Origin: a virus
Length of the DNA: 64,000 nucleotides
Direction: 5' to 3' (one strand)
Virus record (IMG/VR): IMGVR_UViG_3300026484_000002
Span: 27,282 to 91,281 of that record
The notes beneath the pieces are model-generated. The model saw nothing but the letters and a program-made list of their open reading frames with translations, was not told where the DNA came from and did not search any database. The position numbers and the translations under genes are program-made. Position 1 is the stretch's first letter. Every line of letters begins with the position of its first letter. Positions 194 to 63,865 of the stretch are shown in pieces.

Positions 194-2206
194 ATGAACA
201 AACCAAAAATAAATAAAGCAGAGCTTCTGGCTAATTTAAAAGCTGATATGGCTGCTGCCGATACTTCTCGCAAACAAATAGATTCAGAAATTAAACAAAG
301 AAGAAGTGTTTATAATGGCGAGCCTTACGGAAATGAAGAAAAAGGTAAAAGCAGGATTGTTCCAAAAGTAGCTAAGAGGCAACAAGCTTGGGCTCATCCT
401 TCTCTCAAAGAACCATTTGTAAGTACACCTAATTTAGTTAGATTTTCTCCTATCACATATGAAGATGTTCCTGCTGCAAGACAAAATGAAATACTACTAA
501 ATAGCCAATTCTGTAGACAATTTGATAGATATAATTTTATGACTAAAGTACTTAAAGTATTAGAAGTTGATGCTACGGTATTTGTTCAAACTGGATGGGA
601 ATATGAAGAAGAAAAAGTAGTTCAAGAAGTTGATGTTATAGAAATAGATGAAACTACTGGTGAAAGATATATTGCTAAAGTTGAAGAAGAAGTATTGGTT
701 CCAACTGTAAATAAACCTACTGCAAGAGTTTGTAGAAGTGAAGATATATATGTGGATCCAACTTGTGAAGATAATTTAGACAAAGCTCAATTTCTTATAT
801 ATAGATATGAAACTGATTTAAGTACATTGCGAAAAGATCCAAGATATAAAAACCTTGATAAAGTTGCAAAAGCTGGAACTAGAGAAGATCTAGATTATGA
901 AGATCCAGATCCTACTAACTTTGAATTTAAAGATGCACCTAGAAAGAAATTGTTGGTTCATGAATATTGGGGAAATTATGATATTAACGGAGATGGAATA
1001 GCAGAACCAATAGTTTGTGTTTGGGTAGATGATATAATTATTAGATTGCAAGACAACCCATATCCAGATAAAAAGATTCCATTCCTAAGCTGTGCTGCAG
1101 ATAGTGTTCCATTTCAATTGCATGGTGAAAATGATATAGATAATATTGAAGATCAGCAACAAGTAATTACAGCTGTGACTAGAGGTATTATAAATAATAT
1201 GGCTTCTAGCAACAATGGACAAACAGGTATTCGTAAAGGTGCATTAGATCCAGTTCAAAAGAAACGAATGTTAGATGGTAAGAATTTTGAATTCAATGGA
1301 TCTCCTGGAGATATCTGGCAGGGTAGCTACAATGCTATACCAAACAGTGCATTTCAAATGTTACAGATGATGAATGGTGAAGTAGATAGTCTAACAGGTA
1401 CTAAAAGTTTTAGTGGTGGTATTAATGGCGGGAGTCTTGGATCTAGTGCTACAGCAGCAAGAGGTGTGCTTGATAGTACAGCAATCAGAAGACTAGACAA
1501 AGTAAGGAACATTGCAGAGAATTTAATTAAACCATTAATTAGAAAATGGATGTCATATAATAGTGAATTCTTAAGTGACGAAGAAGTAGTTAGAGCTACT
1601 AATGATGAACATGTTGCAATAAGAAAAAGTGAGCTACAAGGCAGATTTGATTTAGATATAGAAATTAGTACACCTGAAGATGATACAGCTAAAAGAAATG
1701 AACTAGGGTTCCTTCTTCAAACGATGGGACCAAACCTACCATTTGAAATGACACAATTAATTTTAGGTGAAATAGCTAGATTAAACAGAATGCCTAAATT
1801 AGAAAAAGATATTAAAGATTATAAACCTCAGCAAGATCCAATTAAAGAGCAACTAAAACAAATAGAACTAGAAAAAGCAAAAGCTGATATTGCAAAAGTT
1901 AAAGCAGATATTCAAAAAATATATACTGAAAGTATTGAAAACAAAGATGGAGATTTGGCTAAAAAATCAGCTCAAGCAGAAGTACTTAGGGCACAAGCAA
2001 AACTTCTTGAAAGTAAAGCAGACATGGAAGATCTTAAATTTGTTAAAATGGACAATCAGACAGATGAACAATTTCAGCTTGAGAAGATTCAAATGGAGAA
2101 TGAGCTTAAAGCTAAAATAGCTGCACTTAAAGAAGAATATAAAATAAAACAAATGAATATCCAAGTTGATAATGGAGATTCCAACATTGGTATACCAAGA
2201 GCATAG
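194..2206 (+). CDS. portal protein (N4 gp59-like)
   Basis: 670 aa; EYWGNYDINGDGIAEPIV and NPYPDKKIPF motifs typical of N4-like portals; coiled-coil C-terminus; position before capsid genes. Confidence 0.9.
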   Translation: MNKPKINKAELLANLKADMAAADTSRKQIDSEIKQRRSVYNGEPYGNEEKGKSRIVPKVAKRQQAWAHPSLKEPFVSTPNLVRFSPITYEDVPAARQNEILLNSQFCRQFDRYNFMTKVLKVLEVDATVFVQTGWEYEEEKVVQEVDVIEIDETTGERYIAKVEEEVLVPTVNKPTARVCRSEDIYVDPTCEDNLDKAQFLIYRYETDLSTLRKDPRYKNLDKVAKAGTREDLDYEDPDPTNFEFKDAPRKKLLVHEYWGNYDINGDGIAEPIVCVWVDDIIIRLQDNPYPDKKIPFLSCAADSVPFQLHGENDIDNIEDQQQVITAVTRGIINNMASSNNGQTGIRKGALDPVQKKRMLDGKNFEFNGSPGDIWQGSYNAIPNSAFQMLQMMNGEVDSLTGTKSFSGGINGGSLGSSATAARGVLDSTAIRRLDKVRNIAENLIKPLIRKWMSYNSEFLSDEEVVRATNDEHVAIRKSELQGRFDLDIEISTPEDDTAKRNELGFLLQTMGPNLPFEMTQLILGEIARLNRMPKLEKDIKDYKPQQDPIKEQLKQIELEKAKADIAKVKADIQKIYTESIENKDGDLAKKSAQAEVLRAQAKLLESKADMEDLKFVKMDNQTDEQFQLEKIQMENELKAKIAALKEEYKIKQMNIQVDNGDSNIGIPRA

Positions 2207-2217
2207 GAGATAATAAA

Positions 2218-2478
2218 ATGGGAATATTAGATAATGCAAGATATGCAGAAATAGGTAAAAAGTCTGAAGCTAAAAAGCTAGTTGATACTGCAATTAACGC
2301 AGCTGCTCCTAAAATAGCAGAAGCAACACTTAGAGAACACGGTCCAATTATTGAACGAATAGCACTCAATAAATATGGACCAGTAATTCATAAGCGTGCA
2401 GTAGGAGAAACTTTAGCTAATCTTGGTATAGGTATTTCCAATAGTGGAAATGGCTTATCAAGTTTGGGCTTTAGTTAA
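2218..2478 (+). CDS. hypothetical small virion/head protein
   Basis: 86 aa, AGGAG SD, ends GLSSLGFS. Confidence 0.6.
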   Translation: MGILDNARYAEIGKKSEAKKLVDTAINAAAPKIAEATLREHGPIIERIALNKYGPVIHKRAVGETLANLGIGISNSGNGLSSLGFS

Positions 2479-2507
2479 AATTTAAACAAATAAAAAAGGA
2501 TAATAAA

Positions 2508-2786
2508 ATGAATGAAGAACAAGGCTTAAGTACAATGGGTGTAGAACCACAAGGAGTTACTGTTGAAAATCCTATTCAAGAAGGACAAGTAGCTGGAGGT
2601 ATAACTGTAGAAGAAGTAATTCAATTACTTATGTCAGGAAAGAATCCTCAGGAATTAGCTGAAGTTGGAGTTCCAGTTGAAATTATAAAACAAGCTATTC
2701 AGATCATTCAACAGCAGGTTCAGGAACAACAAGCACAAGATCAGATGCCACAACAAGGTGGTTTGAGTCAAATTGGCATACAATAA
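2508..2786 (+). CDS. hypothetical Gln-rich protein
   Basis: 92 aa, AAGGA SD; GLSTMG and GLSQIG near its two ends. Confidence 0.6.
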   Translation: MNEEQGLSTMGVEPQGVTVENPIQEGQVAGGITVEEVIQLLMSGKNPQELAEVGVPVEIIKQAIQIIQQQVQEQQAQDQMPQQGGLSQIGIQ

Positions 2787-2787
2787 C

Positions 2788-2820
2788 TTAAAGCACTCTT
2801 AAGTTTAAAGTTTGTATAAT
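2788..2820 (+). promoter_or_regulatory. sigma70-type promoter for head genes
   Basis: TATAAT at 2815-2820 preceded by repeated TTAA(A)G tracts instead of a canonical -35. Confidence 0.55.
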
Positions 2821-2860
2821 GCCCATAACGGATAATATCCGAACATCAACCTAAAAAGGA

Positions 2861-30982: not shown

Positions 30983-31188
30983 TAATTTCCTTTAAAAATA
31001 TAATAGTCTATTCTATAGAATATAATGGATCCAATTATTTGTACTAATAATAAATGTATATACTCTGAATACTTAGATCCAATACAACATTTATATTTAA
31101 CTAATAAATACAATGGAGCCATCATTACGAAAGATGATAAAATCCATCTTCCTAAATATATCATAAAATGAATAGATAAATAATCCAT
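30982..31188 (-). CDS. small membrane protein
   Basis: 68 aa with two hydrophobic segments. Confidence 0.55.
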   Translation of the reverse strand: MDYLSIHFMIYLGRWILSSFVMMAPLYLLVKYKCCIGSKYSEYIHLLLVQIIGSIIFYRIDYYIFKGN

Positions 31189-40166: not shown

Positions 40167-42788
40167 TTATTTTTGATTGGTTCTAGTTATTTGAGCTATT
40201 TCATTCTCACTAACTGGATCCAGTAACATTGTATTTAGATTTCTAGTTTCTTCAACAGCATCAGCTCCTAAATCACTAAAAAATAAAAATGCTTTATGTA
40301 GCATTATATTTCTATTTCCTGTTCCTGCTTGAGTAAGAAAATGTTTTATAAATCCATTTCTTCTTTTTTGATATTCATCGTTATCTTCTAAATAACTATT
40401 TTCAATACTATTAAGTAGTGGTAATACAAGTTCTGCTTTTTCAGTTTCAGGAATTAATGCTGATACATCAAATAATTCTGCTTCATTTTTATATACTTCT
40501 GCTTCTGGATTAGTGAACCACATTCTTGATACATTTGTTGTAGCTTTATCATATATTTTTAATCCTAATACATCTGCTACGTTATCATGTAGTTTTTTAT
40601 ATTTAACTGGATCCACATAATATTTATTCTTTGTAGGAATTAATATTCTAAATCTATCACCTTGGATTTCTCCATGTTTTTCTTTTCTATGTGATTTAGT
40701 TGTATAGATTAGATATGTATATTCCTTTAGCATATCAAATGCTTCTTTAAGAGTGGTTCCATCATCCACATCAAAAGCAATCATATTATTACCCATAATA
40801 TAATATTCTTTTCCTCTATGCCCAGCTCCATTAACTGTTACACATTTCATTGTTGCTTTTGATTCTTCAAACCAAGAACAAGTAAATGATTTAATACTAT
40901 TTGATGTTATTAAAGCTTCTGCTGATTTTGATTCTCCAAAGAATGGTATTTCCAAAGGAGCATATGCAATACTTTCCATAGCTTCTTTTTTTCTACATTC
41001 ATAATCATGTACATCAATTGAGCAGATGATCTTATCTAAAGTATTCTTTTCTGGTTCTTTAATTTCCAAATAAATTGCATTTCCTTCAATTATTTTTGGT
41101 AAAAAACCTTTATGATATGTATATTCTCTAAATAAATCAACAATTTCCATTCGTTTTGTTTTTGCATCTGGAATTTCTATATAATTACCAATTTCCATTA
41201 ATGACATTTTTTTGTTTGATAACTTTAATAAATTATAAATAGATATATCTGTTCTTAATGGAGATAATGTTTCTTTAATAGTCTCTCTTGTCTTCGTGAA
41301 GAGCTTAAAAGCTTCAATTAGATGATTACCATTAACTTCATTTGATAAGTCCATAAAGGCTATTAAATGAGCTACGTTTTCAATCAAATCAACAGATCCA
41401 ACATCAACCATTTTATGTTGATTTTCAAGATTATTATTTGCATCTTCAATAATTGTATCTTTTATCTCTTCTAGAGTTTCTAAATAATTATCTGATATTT
41501 CCATGTTGTAATCTTCATATCCTTCTTGTTTAACAAGATATGTTTGTTTTATTTCATTTCCATATTCTATTGCCTCCTCTAATGCTTTTGTTTTTTCTTC
41601 ATAACTTCTCATGTTTCGTTCAATTTTTGCAATTGGAACTTCTACAACAATTGAACGCCTTAACATTCCTGAAGATAATAATCTAATTAATTTCTTTTTA
41701 GAATCTAAATCAAAACCAACATTGGATCCAAATAACAATACATTAGTAGATACACTTTCTACATTAAACATACTTTCTGATTTAATGATTTTAGAATTGA
41801 CTTTTCCATCATATAGCTGTTTTAACATATTTAATAAACTAGTTGATTGAGCTACCTCATCTCCTATTTCATTTGATATTAAATTAACTGAACCAAATTG
41901 AGCTAAAGATATAGCATTAGCTAATGAATATAGCCCTTCTTTTGTTCCAGAGGCATCTACTATTACATTTTGTGGAACATAGCGTAGAAGTACTTCTTTT
42001 AACTCATCAGATATAGATTCATCATTTACAAGATTATTTCTAAGATTTGTTTTGATTGTTTCTACATAACCTTTTTTAAATCCAGGAGTATCAGTACCAA
42101 ATACTTTTGCTGCTAAATCATAAGAGAAATCTTTTCCACAATTTCCAGTAATAAATACAAAATTGTCATGTCTTGCTAACCAGAACCCAGTCTTGGTCGT
42201 AAAACAATATTTTGTATTATTAGGTAATTGTTCATAAACAATTTGATCTTTTGAAGCTATGGTACTATTTGAAGAACCATCTTCTTTTAATGATGGAATA
42301 TAAATATTATTAAATTTTGAAACTTCTTTTGCTGTTTTTGCTTTTGAAGATTTTATATCATTTTTATTTTCTAAATATAAAACTGTGTGATCTTCTGTTA
42401 TATGCATTGAAACATTACTATTTGTGTTTGGTACATATTTTATAGCTGGTTTATCATCAAATTCTTTGATATATCTTATTGGTTCTCTGAATGTTGCTGT
42501 ATGGGTATCTTTTTCTATTTCTAATACTTTATCTCCATATTTAAAATCAGATATTTTTTTCCATCCATTTTCTGTCATAAATTCAGTATCACCAGATACA
42601 CAAGCACTTCCCGCTAATGTTAATCCATAAAATGTAATATTTTTTCCATTATATTTTTTTGCTTTTCCATTGATAGCATTAATTAATACAGCAGCGTGAA
42701 ATAAGATAGCATTTGAATATATCAATCTATCTGTTTTTCTATCACCTTGCTTTTCTAATCTATCAAGGATGTATTTATATCCTCCCAT
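40167..42788 (-). CDS. primase/helicase (N4 gp43-like) with intein
   Basis: N-terminal P-loop AGSA|CGKD; AEP motifs FDVDDG, YTTKSH, DRFRILIP; 719 aa after splicing. Confidence 0.85.
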   Translation of the reverse strand: MGGYKYILDRLEKQGDRKTDRLIYSNAILFHAAVLINAINGKAKKYNGKNITFYGLTLAGSACVSGDTEFMTENGWKKISDFKYGDKVLEIEKDTHTATFREPIRYIKEFDDKPAIKYVPNTNSNVSMHITEDHTVLYLENKNDIKSSKAKTAKEVSKFNNIYIPSLKEDGSSNSTIASKDQIVYEQLPNNTKYCFTTKTGFWLARHDNFVFITGNCGKDFSYDLAAKVFGTDTPGFKKGYVETIKTNLRNNLVNDESISDELKEVLLRYVPQNVIVDASGTKEGLYSLANAISLAQFGSVNLISNEIGDEVAQSTSLLNMLKQLYDGKVNSKIIKSESMFNVESVSTNVLLFGSNVGFDLDSKKKLIRLLSSGMLRRSIVVEVPIAKIERNMRSYEEKTKALEEAIEYGNEIKQTYLVKQEGYEDYNMEISDNYLETLEEIKDTIIEDANNNLENQHKMVDVGSVDLIENVAHLIAFMDLSNEVNGNHLIEAFKLFTKTRETIKETLSPLRTDISIYNLLKLSNKKMSLMEIGNYIEIPDAKTKRMEIVDLFREYTYHKGFLPKIIEGNAIYLEIKEPEKNTLDKIICSIDVHDYECRKKEAMESIAYAPLEIPFFGESKSAEALITSNSIKSFTCSWFEESKATMKCVTVNGAGHRGKEYYIMGNNMIAFDVDDGTTLKEAFDMLKEYTYLIYTTKSHRKEKHGEIQGDRFRILIPTKNKYYVDPVKYKKLHDNVADVLGLKIYDKATTNVSRMWFTNPEAEVYKNEAELFDVSALIPETEKAELVLPLLNSIENSYLEDNDEYQKRRNGFIKHFLTQAGTGNRNIMLHKAFLFFSDLGADAVEETRNLNTMLLDPVSENEIAQITRTNQK
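42141..42602 (-). mobile_element. mini-intein (154 aa, no endonuclease)
   Basis: Starts CVSGDTEFMT, block B ITEDH, block F YCFTT, ends ITGN followed by Cys+1. Confidence 0.92.
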
Positions 42789-42821
42789 TTATTTATCCTT
42801 TATGTTTTATATGTGTAACTA

Positions 42822-42944
42822 CTAATCATCTACACATATAATTGTGATTGTTGGTTCTCCGTCAATTGGAAAAGTAGTTACAGTTCTACAATCTGCCATT
42901 GCTAGTCCAGTTAGAACCAATAATCCTATTAATATCTTTTTCAT
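42822..42944 (-). CDS. small secreted two-Cys peptide (40 aa, not in ORF track)
   Basis: MKKILIGLLVLTGLAMA|DCRTVTTFPIDGEPTITIICVDD; AAGGA SD. Confidence 0.7.
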   Translation of the reverse strand: MKKILIGLLVLTGLAMADCRTVTTFPIDGEPTITIICVDD

Positions 42945-42992
42945 TCTTTATCCTTTTTATTTATATGTTTACATATTTTTTTTGTTTCTGCG

Positions 42993-43078
42993 TGTTTCCA
43001 TGGAAACAAAAATACTATTTTAAAATTAAATTAAATTTCATTATTCGATCGAATATTCAATCGAATAAAGTCGAATAA
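42993..43078. repeat. palindromes and TCGAATA repeats
   Basis: TGTTTCCATGGAAACA (42993-43008), TATTCGATCGAATA (43042-43055), TCGAATA at 43049, 43061, 43071. Confidence 0.7.
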
Positions 43079-43092
43079 TGAATTATTTTTAT

Positions 43093-43545
43093 TTATTTTT
43101 TTGGTTTTTTAATTATTTTTTCACTATTTTTAGATCCGACTTTCATATAATCTGTATGACTAAAATCATAATTAAATATATGTTCAGCAAATTTAATTAT
43201 TTCATCATTGTATTTTTCATTTTCAAACATATATCTCCATGTTTGTTGAACCAAATATTGATTATTTTTAATTAAACTATCATTTCTTGGCATGAATATA
43301 TATGGATTTAACATTATTTTTTTATTGAATTCTCCAATAACATCACTATCTAATAATTTCTTTTTGAAATTACTTCGTGATACTTTATTCATGTCACTTG
43401 TTAATACTCTAAAAGGTTTAGTTAATATATTGGCTGTATTAACTGTTTCTGAATCATACATATCTATTATTCTTGTTATTTCACTTTTACTTAATGATTC
43501 TAATAATCCTAATACTCCTTTGTTATACATACCCATGTTTTCCAT
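43093..43545 (-). CDS. RepL-like winged-helix DNA-binding protein
   Basis: KKKLLDSDVI..IMLNPYIF pattern resembles RepL-type proteins. Confidence 0.45.
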   Translation of the reverse strand: MENMGMYNKGVLGLLESLSKSEITRIIDMYDSETVNTANILTKPFRVLTSDMNKVSRSNFKKKLLDSDVIGEFNKKIMLNPYIFMPRNDSLIKNNQYLVQQTWRYMFENEKYNDEIIKFAEHIFNYDFSHTDYMKVGSKNSEKIIKKPKK

Positions 43546-43556: not shown

Positions 43557-44318
43557 TTATATATCTCTATTTACATCATCTATAAATTTAGTCAATTGCT
43601 CTTTTAAAATAGACAACCCTTCTAAATCTTTATTATTCTTTAATGCTTTTAACATGCTTACATGCTCTTTTAAATCTGATCTTATTACTGCTCTTGGTTC
43701 AGGACTGTCTTCTAGTGATTTTATGTATTTTAGAATATGACTTATATTGTCCACATATCTTCCGTTAGGTAATTTGCAAACTCCATTTGTTGATAATTCA
43801 TCTAAAATATCAGAGCCAAGTTTTTTTACTATTTTAACAACTCCTGATATATTACCTGTTGATACTCCAAACTTTGTTGCTGCTTCTTTTTGAGTTTTAT
43901 TGTTTTTTATCATATATTCATATGCATCTATTGCTAATTGTGATTTAGTTCTATTTTTTCTATTTTCTGTACTTCTCACTATATCCTCCACATCTGATTT
44001 TGTTAAATTATTTCTTAATTCTAAAAATTTTATCTGGCTTATGCCAATTTGTTTTAATGCTTTTAAACGATGTCTTCCATCTACTAATTTTCCTCTCCAA
44101 AATAAAGCTGGTATAGTTTGTCCTATCTCTGCTATATTATTAACTAACTTTTCATATTCTGCATCTGTCATTTTATGGTTTATTGAAGCTAAGTCGTGTA
44201 TAATTACATTGTTAACATCTTTTAACTTTACATTTGTATCTTTAAGATTCAAATTTCCTACAAATCCTTGAGCTTGCATCTCTTGGATTGTTTCAAAATT
44301 TTCTTGTGTAATTTCCAT
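43557..44318 (-). CDS. ParB/Srx-like N-terminal domain protein with HTH
   Basis: LVDGRHRLKAL; TQKEAATKFGVS HTH; start moved to ATG 44318 because the promoter overlaps the longer ORF start. Confidence 0.8.
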   Translation of the reverse strand: MEITQENFETIQEMQAQGFVGNLNLKDTNVKLKDVNNVIIHDLASINHKMTDAEYEKLVNNIAEIGQTIPALFWRGKLVDGRHRLKALKQIGISQIKFLELRNNLTKSDVEDIVRSTENRKNRTKSQLAIDAYEYMIKNNKTQKEAATKFGVSTGNISGVVKIVKKLGSDILDELSTNGVCKLPNGRYVDNISHILKYIKSLEDSPEPRAVIRSDLKEHVSMLKALKNNKDLEGLSILKEQLTKFIDDVNRDI

Positions 44319-44375
44319 TACGAACACCTTTTTTATTAAATTTATTATAAAGCTATAAAACTTCATAACTGCGAT

Positions 44376-44404
44376 ATTATAACATTTCATTGAAGCAAAG
44401 TCAA
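44376..44404 (-). promoter_or_regulatory. consensus sigma70 promoter
   Basis: TTGACT-17 bp-TATAAT with extended TG. Confidence 0.8.
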
Positions 44405-46899: not shown

Positions 46900-47091
46900 T
46901 TACACAACTTCTATTATTTCTAAAAAACCAAAGCGGGATTCTATGTCGTGCCAATGTTGTTCTCTCAATAATTCAATTCCGACTTCAGTAAATCTTGTTG
47001 CAAGGTTTACTGATCTACATGTTTCTAATTTCATTTTTTGTAGATTTATGAAATCTCCGTCAAATGTTCTCACTATGTAAAACCTATCCAT
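46900..47091 (-). CDS. hypothetical protein
   Basis: 63 aa, coupled to thyX. Confidence 0.5.
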   Translation of the reverse strand: MDRFYIVRTFDGDFINLQKMKLETCRSVNLATRFTEVGIELLREQHWHDIESRFGFLEIIEVV

Positions 47092-47968
47092 TACTTTCCC
47101 CTTTTATTATAAGTTCAAGATACTTTTTAGGTGTTGCTTTTTTTATAGCAATTGCAACTTCTCTCATTAAAAAATATGCAGCTCCAGAATCTCTCAATTC
47201 TAAAAAGTTTTTTAGTGATCTGAGATTTATTGTCCACACTACATCAACTGCCCAATTATCCGTTACAATCCATTTTAAATTATCTCCAGCATTCCTTTTT
47301 GCCTTTGACATTAATAGTCCATCGTATATCAATTCTGGCGTCTTTCTCTCAAGAACGCCATTTGTGAAAGCATCCTTAGATATAACCATTTTTACAAACG
47401 TTGTTGTTTCAAGATGAACTCTTTGCCAATCAAGCTTCTCAAACAGATTGCGAATCTCTATATCTTCAGCATACCCTTTAACAACAAATACATTTAGCTC
47501 TTTTATTTTTTCTGTGAACCATATCAACGAATCTTGCTTCTGAGTATTGTTAGAAAATGATGCTATGTATGCGTAGATAACCAAGTTCATTGTGTATCTA
47601 GTTGATTGCACAGTTGGTGAAGCTATCCTATGCCGTGAAAATTCCTGTAGACATCCTCGACTCATTCCTTTTATTGTATATTGTAAAATACAGTGCTCCA
47701 GCACAGAATGATGAAAATATGTCCACGCTAAATTATCAAGCAGACTCGAGTGCTCAATATCTTTTAGTTTATCTATCGATGTCCTTACATATTCTGAGTT
47801 AAACATTTCACTATTAAGTGCAAGGTTTAAATTTTGCACGGCATCATTTTCACTTTTATCAAAACTACTGTATGCCGTTCTTGCTCCAAATTCCGCAACA
47901 CCCAACCCCGTGTCATTCAAAAGATACGCTTTTGGCTTCGCGTATTTCACGCCTCCTTTAATCAACAT
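47084..47968 (-). CDS. thyX: flavin-dependent thymidylate synthase (canonical motif)
   Basis: HSVLEH, SRGCLQEFSRHRIASPTVQSTRY, INLRSLKNFLELR. Confidence 0.92.
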   Translation of the reverse strand: MLIKGGVKYAKPKAYLLNDTGLGVAEFGARTAYSSFDKSENDAVQNLNLALNSEMFNSEYVRTSIDKLKDIEHSSLLDNLAWTYFHHSVLEHCILQYTIKGMSRGCLQEFSRHRIASPTVQSTRYTMNLVIYAYIASFSNNTQKQDSLIWFTEKIKELNVFVVKGYAEDIEIRNLFEKLDWQRVHLETTTFVKMVISKDAFTNGVLERKTPELIYDGLLMSKAKRNAGDNLKWIVTDNWAVDVVWTINLRSLKNFLELRDSGAAYFLMREVAIAIKKATPKKYLELIIKGESNG

Positions 47969-48275
47969 TTGAAGTCTCCATTACATCATATGCGCTTTCA
48001 ACATTAAACATTAGTTCTAGCATGACTTTGTCTTTTTCAACAGGAATTTTAACTACGGTAAAGCCACCTGTTGACAGTATCATACTCTCGCTTTCTAAAA
48101 TCTCAAACATTAATATTTTCGCTTGTTTGCGCAGCTCTTCTACAGTAGGAACATAGCCACTTTTCCATTTCCAATCTAAAAACACCATCGTCTTATGAAC
48201 CTTTTCAAAGTTAAACATATCTAGCACTTCAGATACTACTCTTTCTTTATTTTTTTCAACTGTTTCTTTTAACAT
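47958..48275 (-). CDS. conserved phage hypothetical protein
   Basis: FNFEKVHKTMVFLDWKW..STGGF pattern. Confidence 0.6.
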   Translation of the reverse strand: MLKETVEKNKERVVSEVLDMFNFEKVHKTMVFLDWKWKSGYVPTVEELRKQAKILMFEILESESMILSTGGFTVVKIPVEKDKVMLELMFNVESAYDVMETSNVD

Positions 48276-48289
48276 CTGTTTTCCTTTTT

Positions 48290-49021
48290 TTATTTATCTT
48301 TTGGCCAAAAATCAAATGAGTCACTCAATAACCAATCTTTTATATGTTCACCTGCATCAAACTCATCTTCTTCAGCAATAATATCTAACATAACAGCATT
48401 TTGCCCTTCTATATAACGAGTTATTACTGCATCCCTACCTCTCCATTTTACTCTTAATCCAACTATTTCTTTCTCGTAGTCTATTTCAAAGTATGTCCAT
48501 GGATATCTCGGATCGTTAAGCTTATGAATTATAGCCTGAGCTTCTATCAGAGAATATGCCATGTCTCTCCCACCTACGGTGTCAAACAATACTCCATTTC
48601 TATAAATTTGAGTAGTTGCTGATGTTTGAAAACCATGCTTATCTCGATAAACAACATTGAAGCATTTAACTCCCCATACAGACCAGTTACTTTTATCGAA
48701 CTCTTTAAGATTATCTATAGTAGGTTTTTCATCTCTTGGGCATATATACACTTTAGGCTTATCTTCTGTGTGTAACATATATGCTTGGTATTTTATATAA
48801 TAATCTTGAAAAATTAATTCAGATTCATTTTGCTCATATGGCATCTCTTTTGCACCAACATTTGTGATGTCGACTTCTATATAACTATTGCTCTGAAGTT
48901 GCACATCCCAGTTTAATTTTGACATTTTCGGAATGTCTGTTTCTTTTAATTTGTAATACACGATTCTCTCCTTAATCTTCAATTGAGTCAAACACATAAA
49001 CTTCATTCCATTTATGACCAC
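48290..49021 (-). CDS. hypothetical protein (start uncertain)
   Basis: 243-aa ORF; likely internal start. Confidence 0.5.
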   Translation of the reverse strand: MVINGMKFMCLTQLKIKERIVYYKLKETDIPKMSKLNWDVQLQSNSYIEVDITNVGAKEMPYEQNESELIFQDYYIKYQAYMLHTEDKPKVYICPRDEKPTIDNLKEFDKSNWSVWGVKCFNVVYRDKHGFQTSATTQIYRNGVLFDTVGGRDMAYSLIEAQAIIHKLNDPRYPWTYFEIDYEKEIVGLRVKWRGRDAVITRYIEGQNAVMLDIIAEEDEFDAGEHIKDWLLSDSFDFWPKDK

Positions 49022-49388
49022 AGCTGTTACAAGTTTTTAACTGCCACGCTTCTTCTTTTGAGCTTTCAAAGCAGTTTCCTTTTATGTTATAGCTAGCACA
49101 GTTGGAACATTTATCTCTAGGCGAGTCTAAACCATAGCTACACATCTCCAACTTATGTTCTGGATGAAAATCCTCCATTACAAGCCTCGCAGACCAATAA
49201 AAAGCTTGCAGCTCAATAGATGGCTTCTCTTTTTCCAAAAGATATTTTATGAATTTTTTAGCATTATCTACTGTTTCTATATAAAATTCATCATCTTTTT
49301 TTCTAAAAGTATTCTCATCTTGACAGAATAATATCCACTCTTTTAAAATATCCTGTTTAGCTCTCTCCGTTAAAAACATTGGCTTCAT
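48972..49388 (-). CDS. Zn-ribbon protein
   Basis: CSNC...CNSCGHKW. Confidence 0.55.
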   Translation of the reverse strand: MKPMFLTERAKQDILKEWILFCQDENTFRKKDDEFYIETVDNAKKFIKYLLEKEKPSIELQAFYWSARLVMEDFHPEHKLEMCSYGLDSPRDKCSNCASYNIKGNCFESSKEEAWQLKTCNSCGHKWNEVYVFDSIED

Positions 49389-49571
49389 TCTTACTCCTTC
49401 TTTTTTGCGTTTATCGCCCTAAATATTTTCTACTGTCTATCAGATTTTCTATCGGTGACATTCTCATAAGAGTATCTGCTTTTGCAAACAAAGATTCTGA
49501 TGGTCCTTTTTCTCTAAACTCTTTTTCTATTTTTGCCAATCCATATAGATAATTTGACAATTTTACTTTAA

Positions 49572-49865
49572 CTACTTTCCCCGCTGTTTGCTAACGACGA
49601 TCGTGCACTTCGCCTTACTTTTGAGGTGTTTTTGCACCCACTGCGTAATTGATTGGTTAATCAGATCTTCCTCAGGAACACTTAGCTTCATAATCTCTCC
49701 GTCACGATAGGTTGCTTTTTTGCCATCAAATGACACTATGTCCTCTGGAGAAAGTTCTTTTTTTGCCTTTTCAGATACTAAACTCAATAGTGTCTCCCCA
49801 ACTAATCTAGTAGGATCAATTGTTACTGTTTTTTCTTTACCTTTAGTTACTAATACTTCTATCAT
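49572..49865 (-). CDS. hypothetical protein
   Basis: 97 aa, coupled to SLT gene. Confidence 0.55.
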   Translation of the reverse strand: MIEVLVTKGKEKTVTIDPTRLVGETLLSLVSEKAKKELSPEDIVSFDGKKATYRDGEIMKLSVPEEDLINQSITQWVQKHLKSKAKCTIVVSKQRGK

Positions 49866-50380
49866 TTTTTTTCCTTTTTATTTGTTTTTATAGCCAATAC
49901 TTCTTTATTGCCTCGTAGCCTTTTTATGTATTTTTTTATGCTTTTAACATACGCACTGTTTATATCGCAAGCGAATCCTTGATTATAACTTGCAACCATG
50001 TGACTCCACACTTTGCTTACCTTCCTAGATTTCCAATAATTTTGCCAATACTTTAATTCAAGAATTGCTGCAGCTATTGAAAAATCTTTATCTAAAATAA
50101 GTCTTTCACATAACCTACTTCTATTCCATAAGGTATCTTTCATCTTCGTCCTTTTTATTAGGAATCTTGGCATCACATGCATTATTCCACAAGAAGGATC
50201 ACTTAGGTTTATTGGGTATTTTCCAAGTTTAGACTCTTGCCAAGCAATCGCAACCAACGTATAGCCCAAATCAAAAGGCTTCCCTTTTTCGTACACAAAT
50301 CTTGCTATATCTTTTTGCTCTTCAGATAAAGCGTACATGTTGACAACTACAAGTAGCAACCCTAACAATATATTTTTCAT
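49862..50380 (-). CDS. lytic transglycosylase (SLT) with signal peptide
   Basis: AIAWQES, CGIMHV, ASYNQG motifs; MKNILLGLLLVVVNMYA leader with GGAG SD. Confidence 0.82.
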   Translation of the reverse strand: MKNILLGLLLVVVNMYALSEEQKDIARFVYEKGKPFDLGYTLVAIAWQESKLGKYPINLSDPSCGIMHVMPRFLIKRTKMKDTLWNRSRLCERLILDKDFSIAAAILELKYWQNYWKSRKVSKVWSHMVASYNQGFACDINSAYVKSIKKYIKRLRGNKEVLAIKTNKKEKK

Positions 50381-50426
50381 ATATTCTCCATTTTTGTTTC
50401 CTTTTTCTAGCAACTATGCTTTTTCT

Positions 50427-50867
50427 TTACAGCTCATCCCATTCTGGTTTTTTGCTTACAAACCCTTCTACTTCACTCATATTGTCAAATGTTAACCCAA
50501 TAGGCTCATAATCGCCCGTTCCGTCTCTATTGAATAAATACGCTTCGAATCCAGACTCAATACTATCCTTAAGGAATAGATGTTTATCTATGCTCACTAT
50601 GTCAACAGACTTTCCATTTGAATAGTCTATTGTTGCAACAATATCTTCATTTGGAGTTAAAGGTTCAATTGCTATAATCTCTACTTCGCTGTTTTTGAAA
50701 GCGTCTAGCGCTTCTTCTTTCTGAAGATTATATAACTCTTTAAAGTCTTTTTTAAAAAGTTCTGTGGCTTCTTCTTTTGAATAATAAAGATATTCTTTTT
50801 GACAAAATTTGCCAAAAATTATATCCGTAATTATAAAATTGTCTGTGTGCTTTTGTGTAATTGTCAT
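50427..50867 (-). CDS. hypothetical acidic protein
   Basis: 146 aa, AAGGA SD. Confidence 0.55.
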   Translation of the reverse strand: MTITQKHTDNFIITDIIFGKFCQKEYLYYSKEEATELFKKDFKELYNLQKEEALDAFKNSEVEIIAIEPLTPNEDIVATIDYSNGKSVDIVSIDKHLFLKDSIESGFEAYLFNRDGTGDYEPIGLTFDNMSEVEGFVSKKPEWDEL

Positions 50868-51070
50868 CCATGTTCCTTTCTTTTAAAGTCTTTAACATAA
50901 TCAGAAACACTGAGTCTTATCCCTTGATCACACGGTCTATCTACAAATTGGTGTTTAATACAATCACCTGTTTCTAATATGACAACATCCTCTCTGGTAT
51001 CTTTCAATTTCACTTTATCTCCAACTTTCATGTCTTTCCTTCATTTTAAAACTCTTTTTTGTTTTTACAT

Positions 51071-51328
51071 CTACACCTCTATAAATATATTATCCACCTC
51101 GATTTCTGAAAAGCCCTCTTCTCTATAGAACCTATACTCTTCTTCAATTGCACATACAATAATGTCTTCATCTTCTAAAAATACTTCGGAACGACAATCT
51201 TGACTTATGCATGTTTTATTTTCATACCAATTCAACCTATTGCACTTTTTGCAAACTTTCAAATCACTCGGTTTTTGTATACAGCCCTGTAAATCCATCT
51301 CTTTCATGCCGTTTCCTTGTCTTCGCAT
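51071..51328 (-). CDS. Zn-finger protein
   Basis: CKKC..NWYEN..CISQDC. Confidence 0.55.
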   Translation of the reverse strand: MRRQGNGMKEMDLQGCIQKPSDLKVCKKCNRLNWYENKTCISQDCRSEVFLEDEDIIVCAIEEEYRFYREEGFSEIEVDNIFIEV

Positions 51329-51936
51329 TTTTCATATATAATTTCACCATTACTGAACCGTGCAGAAACTCTGTATGCATCTGTGAACATTCCAAAAACA
51401 TTCTCCACAGTTGTTCTTAATTCTTCTTCTTTTTCTCTAAATTTTGTCTCTGCTTCTTCGATAATATTTACAATATCCTCTTTTGATTTTCCTTCAGGTA
51501 TCTCAATATCTCCGTACTTTACACAATCAATCAATTCTTGGATAGCGTTTTCCATATCATCTGAATATTGTCCAAACTCATCTCTAAACTTCACAACATA
51601 GTCAAGATTAGCTCCTTCATAATAACCACTGATGCAAAGCACTTCAATTATAACTTCCACCTCAATATCTATTTCTTCAATGTGCATACTTGTGGATATT
51701 TCGCCCAAACTATGTCCTGGATAGCTACGCAAAAAATCATAGCCATTATATACAGAATCTGAAATGTCCATTGTGTTTGTTTTGCTAACAATATCTTTGA
51801 GTTCATACCATACATTATCACACATGTCTTCTACAATAAACTCATCGTTTACAGGCTCTCCATTCTCATCTTCGTAAGATGTGTCTATTGCGTACACACA
51901 TCTTGCATCTTCTGTACAAAAATTACTTGTTCCCAC
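51304..51936 (-). CDS. highly acidic hypothetical protein
   Basis: About 25% Asp+Glu by hand count; SGYYEGANLD motif. Confidence 0.6.
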   Translation of the reverse strand: MGTSNFCTEDARCVYAIDTSYEDENGEPVNDEFIVEDMCDNVWYELKDIVSKTNTMDISDSVYNGYDFLRSYPGHSLGEISTSMHIEEIDIEVEVIIEVLCISGYYEGANLDYVVKFRDEFGQYSDDMENAIQELIDCVKYGDIEIPEGKSKEDIVNIIEEAETKFREKEEELRTTVENVFGMFTDAYRVSARFSNGEIIYEKCEDKETA

Positions 51937-51939
51937 CTT

Positions 51940-52515
51940 TTATCCTTTTTTTTCAGAGCAAGTCAACAGTTTCTCTTCTGCTTCTTTAACAAAACCATTC
52001 AGCTCATATTGATAAACCCTCTTTTTCTCTTCTCTACATCTTTTCAACACATTTTCTCCAATTTTACCTATAGTATAAAAACCACTTGCTTCTATAGGGC
52101 TTGAGCCTTGGAGTATATAATAAGCTAACTCTATTGTGTCGTTCATATCCATTCCACCACCTGTCAAAGCTATGAAGTGGCTATCTAATGGTTCCACATA
52201 CATAACAGAACAATTTGGAGCAAGCTTGTATGCAAGCTCTATTCTGTCTTCACTTGGCTCAAAGGATAAAAGATCCCAATAATATAGAGGGCTTTCCAGT
52301 CCTCTAACTAGCTCGTCACAAGCACTACTTTCTTTGAACATCTCTATTGTTTCATCTTCGTCCATCTCTAACGTGCTCATATCTTCAACCCAATATAAAA
52401 ACTGTTCACTTTTTTTAAGAAGCTCATTGTTGTTTAAGAGCATTTGCTCTGTCAAATTTTCTATATCCTCATATGGGGTAAATCTTTCTTGGTTAATTCT
52501 AACTGAATAACTCAT
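51940..52515 (-). CDS. acidic hypothetical protein
   Basis: IALTGGGMDM motif. Confidence 0.6.
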   Translation of the reverse strand: MSYSVRINQERFTPYEDIENLTEQMLLNNNELLKKSEQFLYWVEDMSTLEMDEDETIEMFKESSACDELVRGLESPLYYWDLLSFEPSEDRIELAYKLAPNCSVMYVEPLDSHFIALTGGGMDMNDTIELAYYILQGSSPIEASGFYTIGKIGENVLKRCREEKKRVYQYELNGFVKEAEEKLLTCSEKKG

Positions 52516-55198: not shown

Positions 55199-55518
55199 TA
55201 TTCTAGTTTTCCTCTTATATATAATTCTTGTTTATATCTTCTATGTTCACGTATCTGTAAAGTATGTTTTTCTTTATTATAATATTGTTTAGAACCACCA
55301 TTCTCTACTCTTCTTTGATAGTTTTTCTTTAATTTATTTGGATCCACTATAAATTGAATTAATCTTTTTGATACACCATACATCTTTGATAATTCTCCTT
55401 GAGAATAAGCATTGTATAAATTATAAATTAAATAAATCTCATCTTTTTGAGACTTAGTTAATTTAACTCTTCTATCTAATTCTTCAGGTATTTTCTTTTC
55501 TATATGCTTATATGGCAT
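55198..55518 (-). CDS. HTH DNA-binding protein
   Basis: SQGELSKMYGVSKRLIQFI. Confidence 0.7.
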   Translation of the reverse strand: MPYKHIEKKIPEELDRRVKLTKSQKDEIYLIYNLYNAYSQGELSKMYGVSKRLIQFIVDPNKLKKNYQRRVENGGSKQYYNKEKHTLQIREHRRYKQELYIRGKLE

Positions 55519-57713: not shown

Positions 57714-59027
57714 CTACTCTCCTTTAAGTTTGGTTCCTTGATAAGAAGCTTCCATTTCTTGTATAAAAGCTTCATCATCTAATTTATCATCATCATTGTA
57801 AAACTTCATTTCATCATAAATAAATTCAGCAAATTCATTTTGTAATTTCATAATATCAAGATTTTGTACATTTGTAGCTTTTACTTTTTCACTATTTAAT
57901 TCAAAATATAATTTTTCATAATATACATTTTTATTGTCTTGTGACATTTTGTTAATAATATTATAATCTAATAATTTAATTTCATAAATAGTTTCAGCAT
58001 AATCATATAATACTTTCCATTCTTTTGAATTCCTTGTTGGAAGAGCATTTTTTATTTTAGTTTTATTGATAGGAAATTCAAATAATCCGTTAATTTTAGA
58101 TTTAAAAACAGTAGATGCATATACTTTTTCTGAAACATTATCTTTTAAAATAAAATCAATATCTGCTTTAAATTTAGATTGCTTCATAAAATCATAAAGT
58201 ATATTTGAAATATTTAAAGTTTGTTCTTCGTCATCAGTAATTTCATCATCAAGTTTATATGCTTCTAAAGTTTCTTCATTTCCAAGCATTTTAGATAGCA
58301 TTGAAATTTCATGATTTTCTTTATATGCATATGTTAAACATTTTTGTTTTTCATAAACAATATTATTGTCTTTCATACTTACTGTTCTGTATTCTGAATG
58401 TGCAATATATGCTCCACTTCTTGAATTATGAATAATAGACGCAAAGCTTGGTTCTAATCTATTTTCTTTAATAGATCCAAAAGGGAATATAATTCCTGGA
58501 TTATCTGGATTTTTATCATAATCAGTTCCTGTAAAGGAATCGTATCTCCTTGACACTGAATCACATGGATGTTTATGTATTGATTGTAAATGATTTGATA
58601 AAAATTCATAATTTTTAAAATTATATTTATTTTTAATAATTTCAACCATATTTAAAAATGATTTACTTTCTAATAATTCATTTACTTTACTATTATGTAG
58701 TGGTTCTAATTGTTTACTTGTATCATCTGTATCATTTAAATTAAAATCAATACGACCTGATGATACTTCTTGTTTATAGTTATAAAATACTGTAGGAATT
58801 GATAAATCCATAAAAGAATTATCTGCATATTTAAATCTAATAATTAATGACCAGTAATGTACTTGATATTCGTTTTGTTTTGCTAATGAACCAGTATTTT
58901 TTCTAATATTATTAATATCTTCATCATTTACTAATAATATACCTAAATTGGATCCAACTGTTTTATCTGTAATTTTAATTTTTGATTTTGTTGGAATTGT
59001 CATTTTAATTGTTTGTTTTTTCTTCAT
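57714..59027 (-). CDS. JAB/MPN-like metalloisopeptidase
   Basis: N-terminal NEYQ (candidate catalytic Glu) and IHKHP......SFTGTD (HxH..[S/T]xxD). Confidence 0.65.
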   Translation of the reverse strand: MKKKQTIKMTIPTKSKIKITDKTVGSNLGILLVNDEDINNIRKNTGSLAKQNEYQVHYWSLIIRFKYADNSFMDLSIPTVFYNYKQEVSSGRIDFNLNDTDDTSKQLEPLHNSKVNELLESKSFLNMVEIIKNKYNFKNYEFLSNHLQSIHKHPCDSVSRRYDSFTGTDYDKNPDNPGIIFPFGSIKENRLEPSFASIIHNSRSGAYIAHSEYRTVSMKDNNIVYEKQKCLTYAYKENHEISMLSKMLGNEETLEAYKLDDEITDDEEQTLNISNILYDFMKQSKFKADIDFILKDNVSEKVYASTVFKSKINGLFEFPINKTKIKNALPTRNSKEWKVLYDYAETIYEIKLLDYNIINKMSQDNKNVYYEKLYFELNSEKVKATNVQNLDIMKLQNEFAEFIYDEMKFYNDDDKLDDEAFIQEMEASYQGTKLKGE

Positions 59028-61257: not shown

Positions 61258-61261
61258 TAAA

Positions 61262-61387: not shown

Positions 61388-61390
61388 ATT

Positions 61391-61921
61391 TTACTCCTTA
61401 ACAATTGATGGTTTAACTAATAATGTTTTAATGATATCTGTATCAATACCTGTTAATTTTACAAGTTCCATCATAATTTTCTTATTAGATGCTAATGAAA
61501 TATAATCAATTGAAGGATGTTCAATTTTATATCCAAAGACTCCATTTCTAATTACTTGAGTTAATACATAAACCCCTACTGTAACAAGTTGTTCTTTTCG
61601 TTTATTGGACATAGTGAGTTTTTGCCACCAAGATAATCTTGATAAGATTACATTTTCTACTAATGTTTCAATATTTTGAAGCAGAATTTCTCCTGTTACA
61701 ATTTTTCCGTTAAGTTTTGTTTCTTCTGAAACTCTATCGATTGTTTTTTGCATTTCATTTTCCTTTGTGTTTTGTTTTGTATATCTTACATATTCATTAA
61801 TCGCTTCTTCTGCGACACTTGTTGCGTATGCTTCTGCATCTTCTTTAAATACTATTTGAACATCATCTTCAATTTCGTATTCATTTAAATCATCTACATA
61901 TAATGTATTTAAAATAGCCAT
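61391..61921 (-). CDS. hypothetical protein
   Basis: 176 aa, AAGGAG SD. Confidence 0.6.
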   Translation of the reverse strand: MAILNTLYVDDLNEYEIEDDVQIVFKEDAEAYATSVAEEAINEYVRYTKQNTKENEMQKTIDRVSEETKLNGKIVTGEILLQNIETLVENVILSRLSWWQKLTMSNKRKEQLVTVGVYVLTQVIRNGVFGYKIEHPSIDYISLASNKKIMMELVKLTGIDTDIIKTLLVKPSIVKE

Positions 61922-62066
61922 ATATGTCTCCTTTTTATTTGTTCTTGATCAAGAGCAATTAAATATTACGAAAAAAGATATATAAAATATATCTACTTTT
62001 TTAGCTGAAAAATCTAATTCGTAATATTTTATTAAGTCTTTTAACGTGGATACTTAGCACGTAATT

Positions 62067-62351
62067 TTAATATCTTGCTTCTTTAATCAATTTTGCATAA
62101 TTTTCTAAATCAATTATGCTATCTTTATCTTCTGATGTTTCTTTTCTTAGTATTTTTAGAACCAAGAAGAAGTTATCAATATCTTCAATATCTAATTCAT
62201 CTTTTTTTTCATTTAGTTGAGTTCGCCTTCTTCTATTTCTTAACATATTCATTATATGAAGCATTTCTAATGTAAATATATTATAAGAACCATATTGATT
62301 GGATCTATCTTTTAATATTTCTTCTGCTTCACTTAATTGTTCTTCATTCAT
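62067..62351 (-). CDS. DUF6378-like protein
   Basis: DRSNQYG..KILR..DSIIDLENYAKL pattern. Confidence 0.6.
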   Translation of the reverse strand: MNEEQLSEAEEILKDRSNQYGSYNIFTLEMLHIMNMLRNRRRRTQLNEKKDELDIEDIDNFFLVLKILRKETSEDKDSIIDLENYAKLIKEARY

Positions 62352-62519
62352 TTTAAATATCCTTTACAATTTTGTTTTGGTGTTAAATTAGGTGTAAACA
62401 CTGTCATGGTGATAGGTTTATTTAATTTTTTATTTAGTAATAATTTAAAATTTCTTTTACAATCATTACATATATCTAATTGGTTCCGTTGCCCACAATA
62501 TGAAATATCTAAATTCATT

Positions 62520-62768
62520 TTATTCTTTTTCAAATTCATCAGCATAAAATCTGCTACAAACTCCACACTCTTCAGGATAATTTTCATTTGCTTTTGGCTC
62601 ATGGATACACCCATTGCAAATTTTTTCTTTTTCAAAATCATCATAAATCTTGTTTATTAAAAATTCTACTTCTGGAGTAGTTACAATGTTCTCTACTAAA
62701 CCATTCCTACTTGCATCTGTACTTGCAATTATTTTAGTTTTTACAGTTAATGCTTCTTTTCTAGTCAT
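62520..62768 (-). CDS. small Cys-rich hypothetical protein
   Basis: AAGGAG SD; CNGC..CGVC. Confidence 0.55.
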   Translation of the reverse strand: MTRKEALTVKTKIIASTDASRNGLVENIVTTPEVEFLINKIYDDFEKEKICNGCIHEPKANENYPEECGVCSRFYADEFEKE

Positions 62769-62998
62769 CTAACAGCTCCTTATTTTCGTAAAAATTTCCG
62801 ATTATTTTTATCTCAAATTTTAAATTTTATATCTTCCATTATTACATTGTTTCTTTTTCAATTTTATATTTACTAAGTAAATTAAGTAATTCAGGTTTTA
62901 ATATTAATTCTTGGGGAGTATTTGTATTTGCTAATATTTGTAATCTATTTTTTATGTCTGTTTCAATTTCATTTAATATTGTTTCATATAGTTCTAAA

Positions 62999-63271
62999 TT
63001 ATTCATGTGTAAGATCCTCTTTTAATTTAAATAAAATACTTAATGTATATTTTCTATTTTTTTTATATTTCATATTTTTTGGATCCAAAGGTTTCATAAA
63101 ATAAGTAATAGCATCATCTAGATTAAAATATCTTACTTGATGAAAAGAAGATCCATTTCTTTGTAGTTTGTAATTAATTGATTTTGCTAATCCATTACAA
63201 ATTGAATTTGCTTTTTTTTCATTTGTTATTTGTTGCAAGTCTGTTTTACAGAATTCTATTTTATTGTTCAT
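62999..63271 (-). CDS. hypothetical protein
   Basis: 90 aa following thyX. Confidence 0.5.
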   Translation of the reverse strand: MNNKIEFCKTDLQQITNEKKANSICNGLAKSINYKLQRNGSSFHQVRYFNLDDAITYFMKPLDPKNMKYKKNRKYTLSILFKLKEDLTHE

Positions 63272-63274
63272 TAT

Positions 63275-63865
63275 TTATTCTTTAGTTAAATTATCATATA
63301 GTTTTTCTGTAAATACTTGTGGATATAGTTGAGCAAACTTACTATATAAATCTTTTGCTAATTCCCTAATTTCATATTGAGCATGAGATGTTAATCTTAG
63401 TTTAAAAAAATCCATCCATGCTTGTAAGTTACCTGAAACTCTCATATTAGTTGAAGTATTCATAGGGAGAACTGCTCTAGCATCTTCTTTTTTTACTTTA
63501 TTATTGATTAGTTCTTCATATGTTTTAATAGCTTGATCCCAAGATTCTTTCATTAACTCTTGTTGATTTGGATCCAATCCTTCAGGCATAATAAATTGCA
63601 TTTTATTTGCAGATACATATCTCATAGATTGAACTAAGAAATCTAAATGTTTGGATCTAACTACTTGATCTGAACATGCTCTTGATATGTTTTTAATATC
63701 TACTACTACAAATGCAAATCTAAGTACTGCAAGATGTCCATATCCATGAACCAATTGATTGGTAATATCTTTACCTCCATCTTCAATAAGTTTGCTTGCA
63801 TAACAAATTTTTGCACTTTCTCCAATTATATTTTCTGGTGTATAAGTAATAATTTTAGTTTTCAT
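63275..63865 (-). CDS. thyX: flavin-dependent thymidylate synthase (variant motif)
   Basis: SRACSDQVVRSKHLDFLVQSMRY, KEDARAVLP, LRLTSHAQYEIR. Confidence 0.85.
   Translation of the reverse strand: MKTKIITYTPENIIGESAKICYASKLIEDGGKDITNQLVHGYGHLAVLRFAFVVVDIKNISRACSDQVVRSKHLDFLVQSMRYVSANKMQFIMPEGLDPNQQELMKESWDQAIKTYEELINNKVKKEDARAVLPMNTSTNMRVSGNLQAWMDFFKLRLTSHAQYEIRELAKDLYSKFAQLYPQVFTEKLYDNLTKE

Follow-up and report, generated by a model that had tools for sequence, protein, structure and literature searches.

An iterated palindrome in an N4-like phage genome, its asymmetric half-site, and a gp43-type primase as candidate reader

Why does a single octamer palindrome, TGGATCCA, recur throughout a phage genome? 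The question is raised by a stretch of 64,000 nt (the window, meaning that whole stretch) corresponding to bases 27,282–91,281 of IMGVR_UViG_3300026484_000002, a complete 91,281-bp IMG/VR record with direct terminal repeats. This genome, hereafter G000, is that of an N4-like podophage. The original prediction, made from the letters of the window, had proposed a HIP-like signal linked to methylation-directed repair or recombination, protein binding or self-marking. We report that the repeated unit is very probably an asymmetric half-site, GATCCA, belonging to a word found in many other phages including N4, and we consider an N4 gp43-type AEP primase-helicase encoded in the window as its candidate reader.

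The palindrome and its half-site

The by-eye figures of the original prediction were accurate. At a measured GC content of 29.3% (28–30% had been assumed; the complete genome has 29.5%), the window holds exactly 24 copies of TGGATCCA, those at the positions cited in the prediction included, as against 0.69 ± 0.86 in dinucleotide shuffles, together with 27 GGATCC (3.6 expected). The variant palindromes, put at 20 or more, amount to 16 copies of TAGATCCA and 15 of TGGATCTA. In complete G000, TGGATCCA occurs 31 times for 0.7–2.5 expected. The copies in the window were said to fall in two reading frames and in non-coding hairpins; the two frames were recovered (13 [L/V/M]-D-P and 11 x-G-S-x), the hairpins were not, as 24/24 copies lie inside called open reading frames (ORFs). 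The copy at 31026 is flanked by neither an inverted repeat nor a terminator-like structure.

Copies of TGGATCCA in the window, with the codons or gene in which they lie:
753–760, portal gene, V-D-P codons
3298–3305, L-D-P codons
7127–7134, S-G-S-T codons
7903–7910, V-D-P codons
8093–8100, D-G-S-I codons
13663–13670, L-D-P codons
16026–16033, L-D-P codons
19377–19384, L-D-P codons
21595–21602, I-G-S-N codons
21718–21725, T-G-S-N codons
28926–28933, S-G-S-K codons
31026–31033, doubtful 68-aa ORF between convergent gene blocks, no hairpin
33493–33500, RNR large-subunit gene, Y-G-S-K codons
36569–36576, L-D-P codons
40215–40222, within the primase gene, L-D-P codons
40608–40615, within the primase gene, V-D-P codons
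41723–41730, within the primase gene, F-G-S-N codons
53749–53756, DEAD-helicase gene
55339–55346, V-D-P codons
56636–56643, Cas4-like nuclease gene
58949–58956, V-G-S-N codons
59977–59984, M-D-P codons
63080–63087, L-D-P codons
63569–63576, ThyX gene, L-D-P codons

Codon choice does not account for these numbers. When both strands of the coding sequence of G000 are counted, 60 palindromes are found, as compared to 6.5 ± 3.2 under a synonymous-codon shuffle and 2.4 under codon permutation. A dicodon-preserving Euler shuffle, the control on which the original prediction had been staked and a very conservative one, leaves 21 ± 5.2 copies, so that the excess persists (z 7.5). Markov models of maximal order (orders 4–6) are uninformative for the palindrome, because its sub-words are themselves enriched and absorb the signal.

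When all words of G000 are ranked, GATCCA/TGGATC comes first (184 copies, 31–55 expected) and GAACCA/TGGTTC second (110 copies, 26–42 expected). The two forms, written together as (A)GAWCCA(A), give 294 copies of GAWCCA in the complete genome (one every 310 bp). Of these, 145 are on the plus strand and 149 on the minus strand, and the strands are evenly represented in every 5-kb bin. Relative to transcription they lie on both strands without bias, in two frames on each.

Half-sites dispersed in the window:
1–64000, both strands counted, GATCCA 136 copies, GAACCA 84 copies

Most of these sites stand outside any palindrome. Non-palindromic AGATCCA is present in 93 copies (12–23 expected) and AGAACCA in 67, and the base that precedes GATCCA outside palindromes is usually A (the same 93 sites) and almost never G (8 GGATCCA). 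Total GATC is at expectation, with 251 occurrences for ~252–265, and is redistributed by context: 172 occurrences take the form RGATCY, and GATC is scarcer than expected in other contexts. We are therefore highly confident that TGGATCCA is not a unit itself and consists of two opposite-strand GATCCA sharing the self-complementary GATC core. It is equally well supported that GATCCA, together with GAACCA, is the G000 dialect of a family word whose consensus is GAACCA and whose favoured context is A-GAACCA-A.

The coding sequence takes up the word at many of the places where it can be written. Among the synonymous opportunities available in G000, 25–43% are used for the word and 36% for the full palindrome, as against 2–6% for most control words of the same composition. 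At 28 orthologous sites in conserved structural genes, motif-free close relatives keep the amino acids in 103 of 248 comparisons and the word in 14 of 248; a D-P pair, for instance, is encoded by GATCCA in G000 and by GACCCT in the relatives. Other half-sites of G000 arose by conservative replacement (N-P to D-P, V to I, T to S). The half-site word is thus, in all likelihood, under selection at the DNA level.

These comparisons also bear on another explanation, a signature imposed on the genome by the host, or an artefact of coding that reflects dipeptide or codon-pair preferences for D-P and G-S. All palindromes do lie in genes and encode one of these two pairs, and the amino-acid sequence offers more opportunities for them than codon permutation would suggest (6.5 as compared to 2.4). 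However, the excess outlasts both the synonymous-codon and the dicodon-preserving shuffles, it is found on both strands and in several frames, and relatives having the same amino acids lack the word. In the closest portal relatives, at 71–78% identity, the word is not enriched. An artefact of this kind, already largely refuted by the shuffles and the orthologous sites, is extremely unlikely.

The word and its dialects in other phages

In the closest portal relatives, GATC is often avoided, and GAACCA came first among the hexamers at only 4 of the 79 portal-relative loci. GAACCA is the only form in some more distant relatives, one of which has no GATC at all (0, 56 expected) and 19 copies of AGAACCAA (0.6 expected). 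A profile search with the primase described below retrieved 57 viral contigs, of 22–59% GC and with genome sizes of 43–113 kb, where a single-sequence primase query had returned no relatives. Among the 4,096 hexamers, the top one was of GAACCA type in ~42 of these contigs and an NNNCCA dialect in ~10 more. The dialects include GTACCA, GAGCCA, CAGCCA, AAGCCA, GCACCA, TTACCA, GAACCC and, at locus L133, GATCCA. Enrichment can be very strong, as illustrated by contigs with AGAACCA 99 times for 3.2 expected, GTACCAA 59 times for 1.8 and GATCCAA 30 times for 1.8. The density of the family word is about one per 200–600 bp overall, or one per ~400–1,300 nt on each strand.

Two cultured phages show the same pattern. 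In coliphage N4 (50 kb), GAACCA is the top hexamer (153 copies, 25 expected) and takes the form of a GAACCAG dialect (76 copies, 5.9 expected), while Salmonella phage FSL SP-058 has an RAACCAA dialect with 111 AACCAA for 26 expected. The word is common to phages of E. coli, Salmonella and Pseudomonas and of many uncultured hosts. Besides these, fragments at L299, L334/L287, L395 and L396 have TGGATC or GGATCC as top hexamer, with a signal that is partly one-stranded; they may be further GATCCA-dialect phages.

In the relatives, 57 tests of single strands gave a mean z of −0.75 (p 9e-6), the word being spaced along each strand more evenly than chance would place it. Control words matched for count deviate the other way and are over-dispersed (mean z +0.73; Mann-Whitney p 1e-13 for the comparison with the word), and when both strands are pooled the spacing of the word looks random. 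This per-strand evenness points to selection for coverage of each strand by a reader of one strand. Being seen per strand and not in the pooled sites, it speaks against a protein that binds double strands, and also against a drive that is purely mutational.

A drive of this sort would operate if the palindrome were produced or kept up by methylation of GATC or GGATCC followed by biased repair of the very-short-patch type, through phage or host enzymes, as in a system resembling HIP1 of cyanobacteria (GCGATCGC). The likeness is real: both are highly iterated octamer palindromes with a GATC core, located inside genes and independent of codon usage. In G000 the palindrome is enriched ~30–45-fold, and single-transition variants are common while the double variant, TAGATCTA, is present in 1 copy only, which resembles a T-to-C repair drive. 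Unlike HIP1, the half-site is enriched on its own and GATC is not, and the sister word GAACCA carries the same signal without GATC, being co-enriched in G000 and the sole form in the zero-GATC relatives. A GATC/RGATCY methyltransferase had been suggested as something to look for; in the complete phage genome, nothing matched PF02086, PF01555, PF00145, PF05869, PF02384 or PF05063, nor Vsr (PF03852). The range of hosts in which the word is shared is a further point against this origin, and the even per-strand spacing indicates selection rather than mutation. We regard a HIP1-like mechanism as highly unlikely. What stands of the earlier proposal is a real, selected signal at the DNA level that does not depend on codon usage and that some protein probably reads; what finds no support is the mechanism based on GATC methylation.

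If palindromes result from overlapping half-sites, each dialect with a self-complementary core should yield its own, and this held in 2 of 2 genomes. In G055, the complete genome behind L133, GATCCA occurs 169 times for 16.5 expected and the top palindrome among the 256 8-mers is again TGGATCCA (11 copies, 0.44 expected). In G057, which uses the GTACCA dialect (237 copies, 17.7 expected), the top palindrome of 256 is TGGTACCA (10 copies, 0.51 expected). In a tree of the primases, G000 groups with GTACCA and GAACCA genomes and L133 falls elsewhere, so the GATCCA dialect arose twice. The palindrome is an emergent property of a dialect whose core is self-complementary.

A separate candidate, an iterated palindrome peculiar to each lineage (TAGCTA, CTGCAG, GTCGAC and others), was rejected: the enrichment of these words is only ~2-fold in whole genomes and they are often TAG-rich, which makes codon or recoding effects the likelier cause. 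In the distant portal relatives G002–G005 (L080–L099), the top words are likewise TAG-rich (ACCTAG, AGCTAAAG, TAGCTA), CTAG is not avoided, and the palindrome ACCTAGGT is found in 11 copies in G003 and 9 in G004. These words may reflect stop-codon recoding or a different word.

A gp43-type primase-helicase as candidate reader

The protein that we consider as the candidate reader of the word is encoded in the window. A second candidate, discussed further below, lies close to it.

40167–42788, minus strand, primase-helicase of N4 gp43 type, 873 aa, phrog_2135 at 2e-51; candidate reader of the word
43557–44390, minus strand, ParB-like/HTH protein, 277 aa, PHROG matches; rival reader, judged unlikely

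The primase-helicase shares 31% identity with N4 gp43 and is composed of an N-terminal P-loop domain, a C-terminal AEP catalytic domain and, in the structure model, a five-helix bundle. Its C-terminal half matches the annotated DNA primase in 468 GenBank Schitoviridae records. The P-loop region is interrupted by a Hint-domain mini-intein of ~155 aa, which by alignment follows the nearly invariant S61 and precedes the invariant G218-K219. The catalytic residues D673-x-D675 and H700 are invariant in 21 homologues, and the DxD and His are also kept in N4 gp43, VBP47 and SP-058.

A structure model of the C-terminal half (pLDDT 92.5) was compared with known folds. Foldseek retrieved S-2L PrimPol (E 2e-5, probability 1.00), VIA gave S-2L PrimPol at Z 7.1 (root-mean-square deviation 4.8, 142 residues), RepB' at 5.7 and VACV D5 at 5.1, and nearly all top matches were AEPs, including LigD and CAPP. 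On the strength of this model, the C-terminal half is predicted to have the AEP catalytic fold. The five helices occupy model residues 224–313, and the bundle matches that of ASFV PrimPol at Z 5.7 and that of pRN1 at Z 4.2, a range common for helical bundles. The PriCT_1 domain was detected in homologues P0026 (1.4e-9) and P0002 (4e-4) and is not significant in the G000 protein. Searching PDB sequences with the primase profile gave nothing significant, with no detectable sequence similarity to the NrS-1 or pRN1 primases.

The helix bundles of AEPs are template-recognition modules that read template words of 3–8 nt (PMC8718748). The helix-bundle domain of the NrS-1 PrimPol recognises 5'-TTTGGTTA-3' and 5'-GTG-3', and pRN1 ORF904 reads 5'-GTG-3'; the NrS-1 8-mer has been treated as a possible specific initiation site and not as a genome-wide word (PMC8718748). 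The candidate reader of G000 is modelled with the same arrangement, its helix bundle coming after the AEP catalytic fold. On the template strand, the word of the gp43-type family reads 5'-TTGGTTCT-3' or 5'-TTGGATCT-3', and like the NrS-1 site it is short, asymmetric and strand-specific, the first form sharing TTGGTT with that site. Unlike the NrS-1 site, it saturates both strands and evolves dialects.

Phage T7 offers a second comparison. Its gp4 primase, a DnaG/TOPRIM-type enzyme with a zinc finger and not an AEP, uses the sites 5'-GGGTC, TGGTC and GTGTC-3' for the primers pppACCC, pppACCA and pppACAC. These are also short asymmetric template words for lagging-strand priming, and TGGTC resembles TGGWTC. 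In T7 (L286), TGGTC is found 141 times for 84 expected (rank 25 of 1,024 pentamers), GGGTC is enriched 1.4-fold, GTGTC is not enriched and GAACCA shows no excess. The ~1.7-fold enrichment of TGGTC thus differs from the 4–30-fold enrichment of the gp43-family word.

Among the loci retrieved through the primase the word is widespread, with a GAACCA-type or dialect top hexamer at ~50 of the 57 loci, and it is found as well in N4 and SP-058. Motif-negative N4-like relatives have a divergent, full-length gp43-type homologue, recovered by a profile search at maximum sensitivity.

Genes of the divergent primase-helicase subfamily, in the coordinates of each genome:
52357–54507 in G002
95522–97771 in G003
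41153–43426 in G004

In this subfamily the DxD is kept while the invariant His is replaced (YTTKSH to TSNSEN or SSDPDN), as are other invariant residues, and these enzymes may be catalytically altered, judging from their sequences.

By analogy with the known AEPs, GAACCA-type words could be the recognition or start sites of the gp43-type primase, the reading that we rank first and hold to be about as likely as not. The helix-bundle domain would recognise the word on single-stranded template, as 5'-TGGWTC-3' if the NrS-1 analogy holds, and the enzyme would start primers there. Selection would maintain, on either strand, sites that are evenly spaced and numerous enough for discontinuous synthesis and re-priming, with the word spelled out within genes, irrespective of frame, by means of synonymous codons and conservative amino-acid changes. 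The cheapest second-strand site would be made by putting TG before an existing GATCCA, since 4 of its 6 bases already fit an opposite-strand site, and the product would be the palindrome. A more far-reaching version is that an AEP primase with a template specificity of 6–7 nt forced the rewriting of whole phage genomes, that of N4 included, into evenly spaced start sites on two strands; its specificity would drift (GAACCA, GATCCA, GTACCA, GAGCCA and others) as primase and genome co-evolve a private replication code, and HIP-like palindromes would be a by-product. This version is tentative, and we think it rather less probable than its negation.

Several observations weigh against a role of the primase. 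The motif-bearing genomes were picked via the primase, so that its association with the word is partly circular. G000 itself is over-dispersed (coefficient of variation 1.2), owing to three multi-kb gaps. Strand polarity is absent, both in G000 (145 and 149 sites) and in N4 (86 and 67); a model of lagging-strand synthesis from a fixed origin would predict such polarity, and the balanced strands therefore count against it, as weak evidence. Vibrio phage VBP47 (L284) has only ~2-fold enrichment of TTACCA, TCACCA and TATCCA despite an intact gp43-type primase with all the invariant residues, and the distant primase loci L142, L147, L150, L153 and L155 have weak or different top words. None of the fold Z-scores exceeds 7.1, a moderate value. 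The two GATCCA-dialect primases share 7 rare residues for a baseline of 0–9, which gives no signal of convergence. In the literature, we found no paper tying a gp43-type primase to a GAACCA-type word. The few dispersed two-strand loci found by searching for the motif first are fragments, 2–48% complete, which are primase-free over the part recovered. Finally, the palindromic share of dialect sites varies, from 34% of GATCCA in G000 to 13% in G055 and 8% in the GTACCA genome, and a factor beyond half-site overlap may favour the palindrome in G000.

Most of what the motif-first searches returned was of another nature: the two-copy pattern gave mostly chance pairs and the three-copy pattern mostly one-stranded coding repeat arrays, some of them in giant-virus bins. 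Dense one-stranded GAACCA/TGGTTC arrays, with up to 84 copies per 3 kb, were seen at L294, L310, L345, L352, L361, L372, L374, L377, L388 and other loci. They look like periodic coding repeats and differ from the dispersed two-strand word.

The high palindromic share in G000 exceeds what the half-site model needs, and would suit a dimeric protein that binds double-stranded TGGATCCA and organises, marks or partitions the genome. The site is palindromic, the gene for the ParB-like/HTH protein listed above is close to the primase gene, and a ParB-like homologue is present in G000, G055 and G057. On the other hand, half-sites are enriched without the palindrome (AGATCCA 93, AGAACCA 67), and a reader of double strands predicts evenness of the pooled sites, not the per-strand evenness that is seen. 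The distribution of the ParB-like protein was searched with the G000 protein as query, as the Pfam ParB_N profile misses it; the protein turned up in 4 of the 16 complete genomes that bear the motif, and in G004, which is motif-negative. ParB-parS systems have a few clustered parS sites of ~16 bp and a co-occurring ParB, unlike the 31 dispersed 8-bp sites and ~230 half-sites of G000. Such a binder appears quite improbable as the reader.

Another replication or recombination protein of the phage might read the word directionally on one strand, the word serving as a signal akin to Chi for a helicase-nuclease (a DEAD/UvrD-type helicase with a Cas4-like/gp42-type exonuclease) or as a loading site for a Sak4-like annealase or SSB. 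The under-dispersed spacing on each strand would suit any strand-specific reader. The DEAD helicase and Cas4-like nuclease travel in the primase's replication module; G000, G055 and G057 all have them, and the motif-negative G002–G005 gave no match to either. Yet of the 16 complete genomes with the primase, the nuclease could be detected in 10 and the helicase in 12, and complete genomes rich in the motif, such as G078 and G080, have neither. E. coli Chi, GCTGGTGG, is likewise an asymmetric oligomer, over-represented and read on a single strand; unlike Chi, the phage word has no orientation skew, it is the same where the Chi of the hosts differs, and the GAACCAG of N4 is not E. coli Chi. To our knowledge, a phage-encoded Chi reader is without precedent. 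A directional reader other than the primase is unlikely, though it deserves consideration.

Were the primase indeed the reader, the template specificity of the gp43 family could be read straight from genome statistics, with predicted specificities of GAACCAG for N4, GAWCCA for G000 and GTACCA for a relative, and a replication enzyme would be able to impose a genome-wide word strong enough to alter amino acids. In that case a highly iterated palindrome would also have arisen with no methylation system behind it, which would call for caution with HIP-like signals elsewhere. Possible uses include the grouping of metagenomic fragments by dialect and the synthetic recoding of N4-like therapeutic phages, in which removal of the word might impair replication.

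A motif-free island and other features of G000

One part of the window is devoid of the word.

47516–52189, both strands, motif-free island of 4.7 kb, GAWCCA 0 for ~15 expected (P 3e-7)

The island has a GC content of 33.9% (29.5% in the genome) and 6 GATC for 16 expected, and its genes comprise a ThyX-like one, one with an SLT domain and ~10 small ORFs. The stretch was probably acquired recently and has yet to adapt to the resident dialect. If the primase does read the word, the proposed private code could confine priming to DNA of the phage itself and put incoming or recombinant DNA without the dialect at a disadvantage, this island being an example. Absence of the word might also serve to flag recently acquired DNA in such phages.

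Restriction-site-like words are scarce in G000: GGCC occurs once for ~54 expected, and GCGC, CCGG and CATG are low too, which is classic restriction avoidance. The sole GGCC falls inside the motif-free island.

The replication module of G000 has the gene order of N4, with a Sak4-like AAA_24 protein adjoining the primase, and the portal is classed as SU10-type. A megablast search of the vRNAP region against GenBank phages gave no match. Two ThyX (Thy1) homologues are encoded on the minus strand of the window, at 47084–47968 and 63275–63865; one is of standard type, with 196 aa, and the other, of 294 aa, is divergent and has an insertion.

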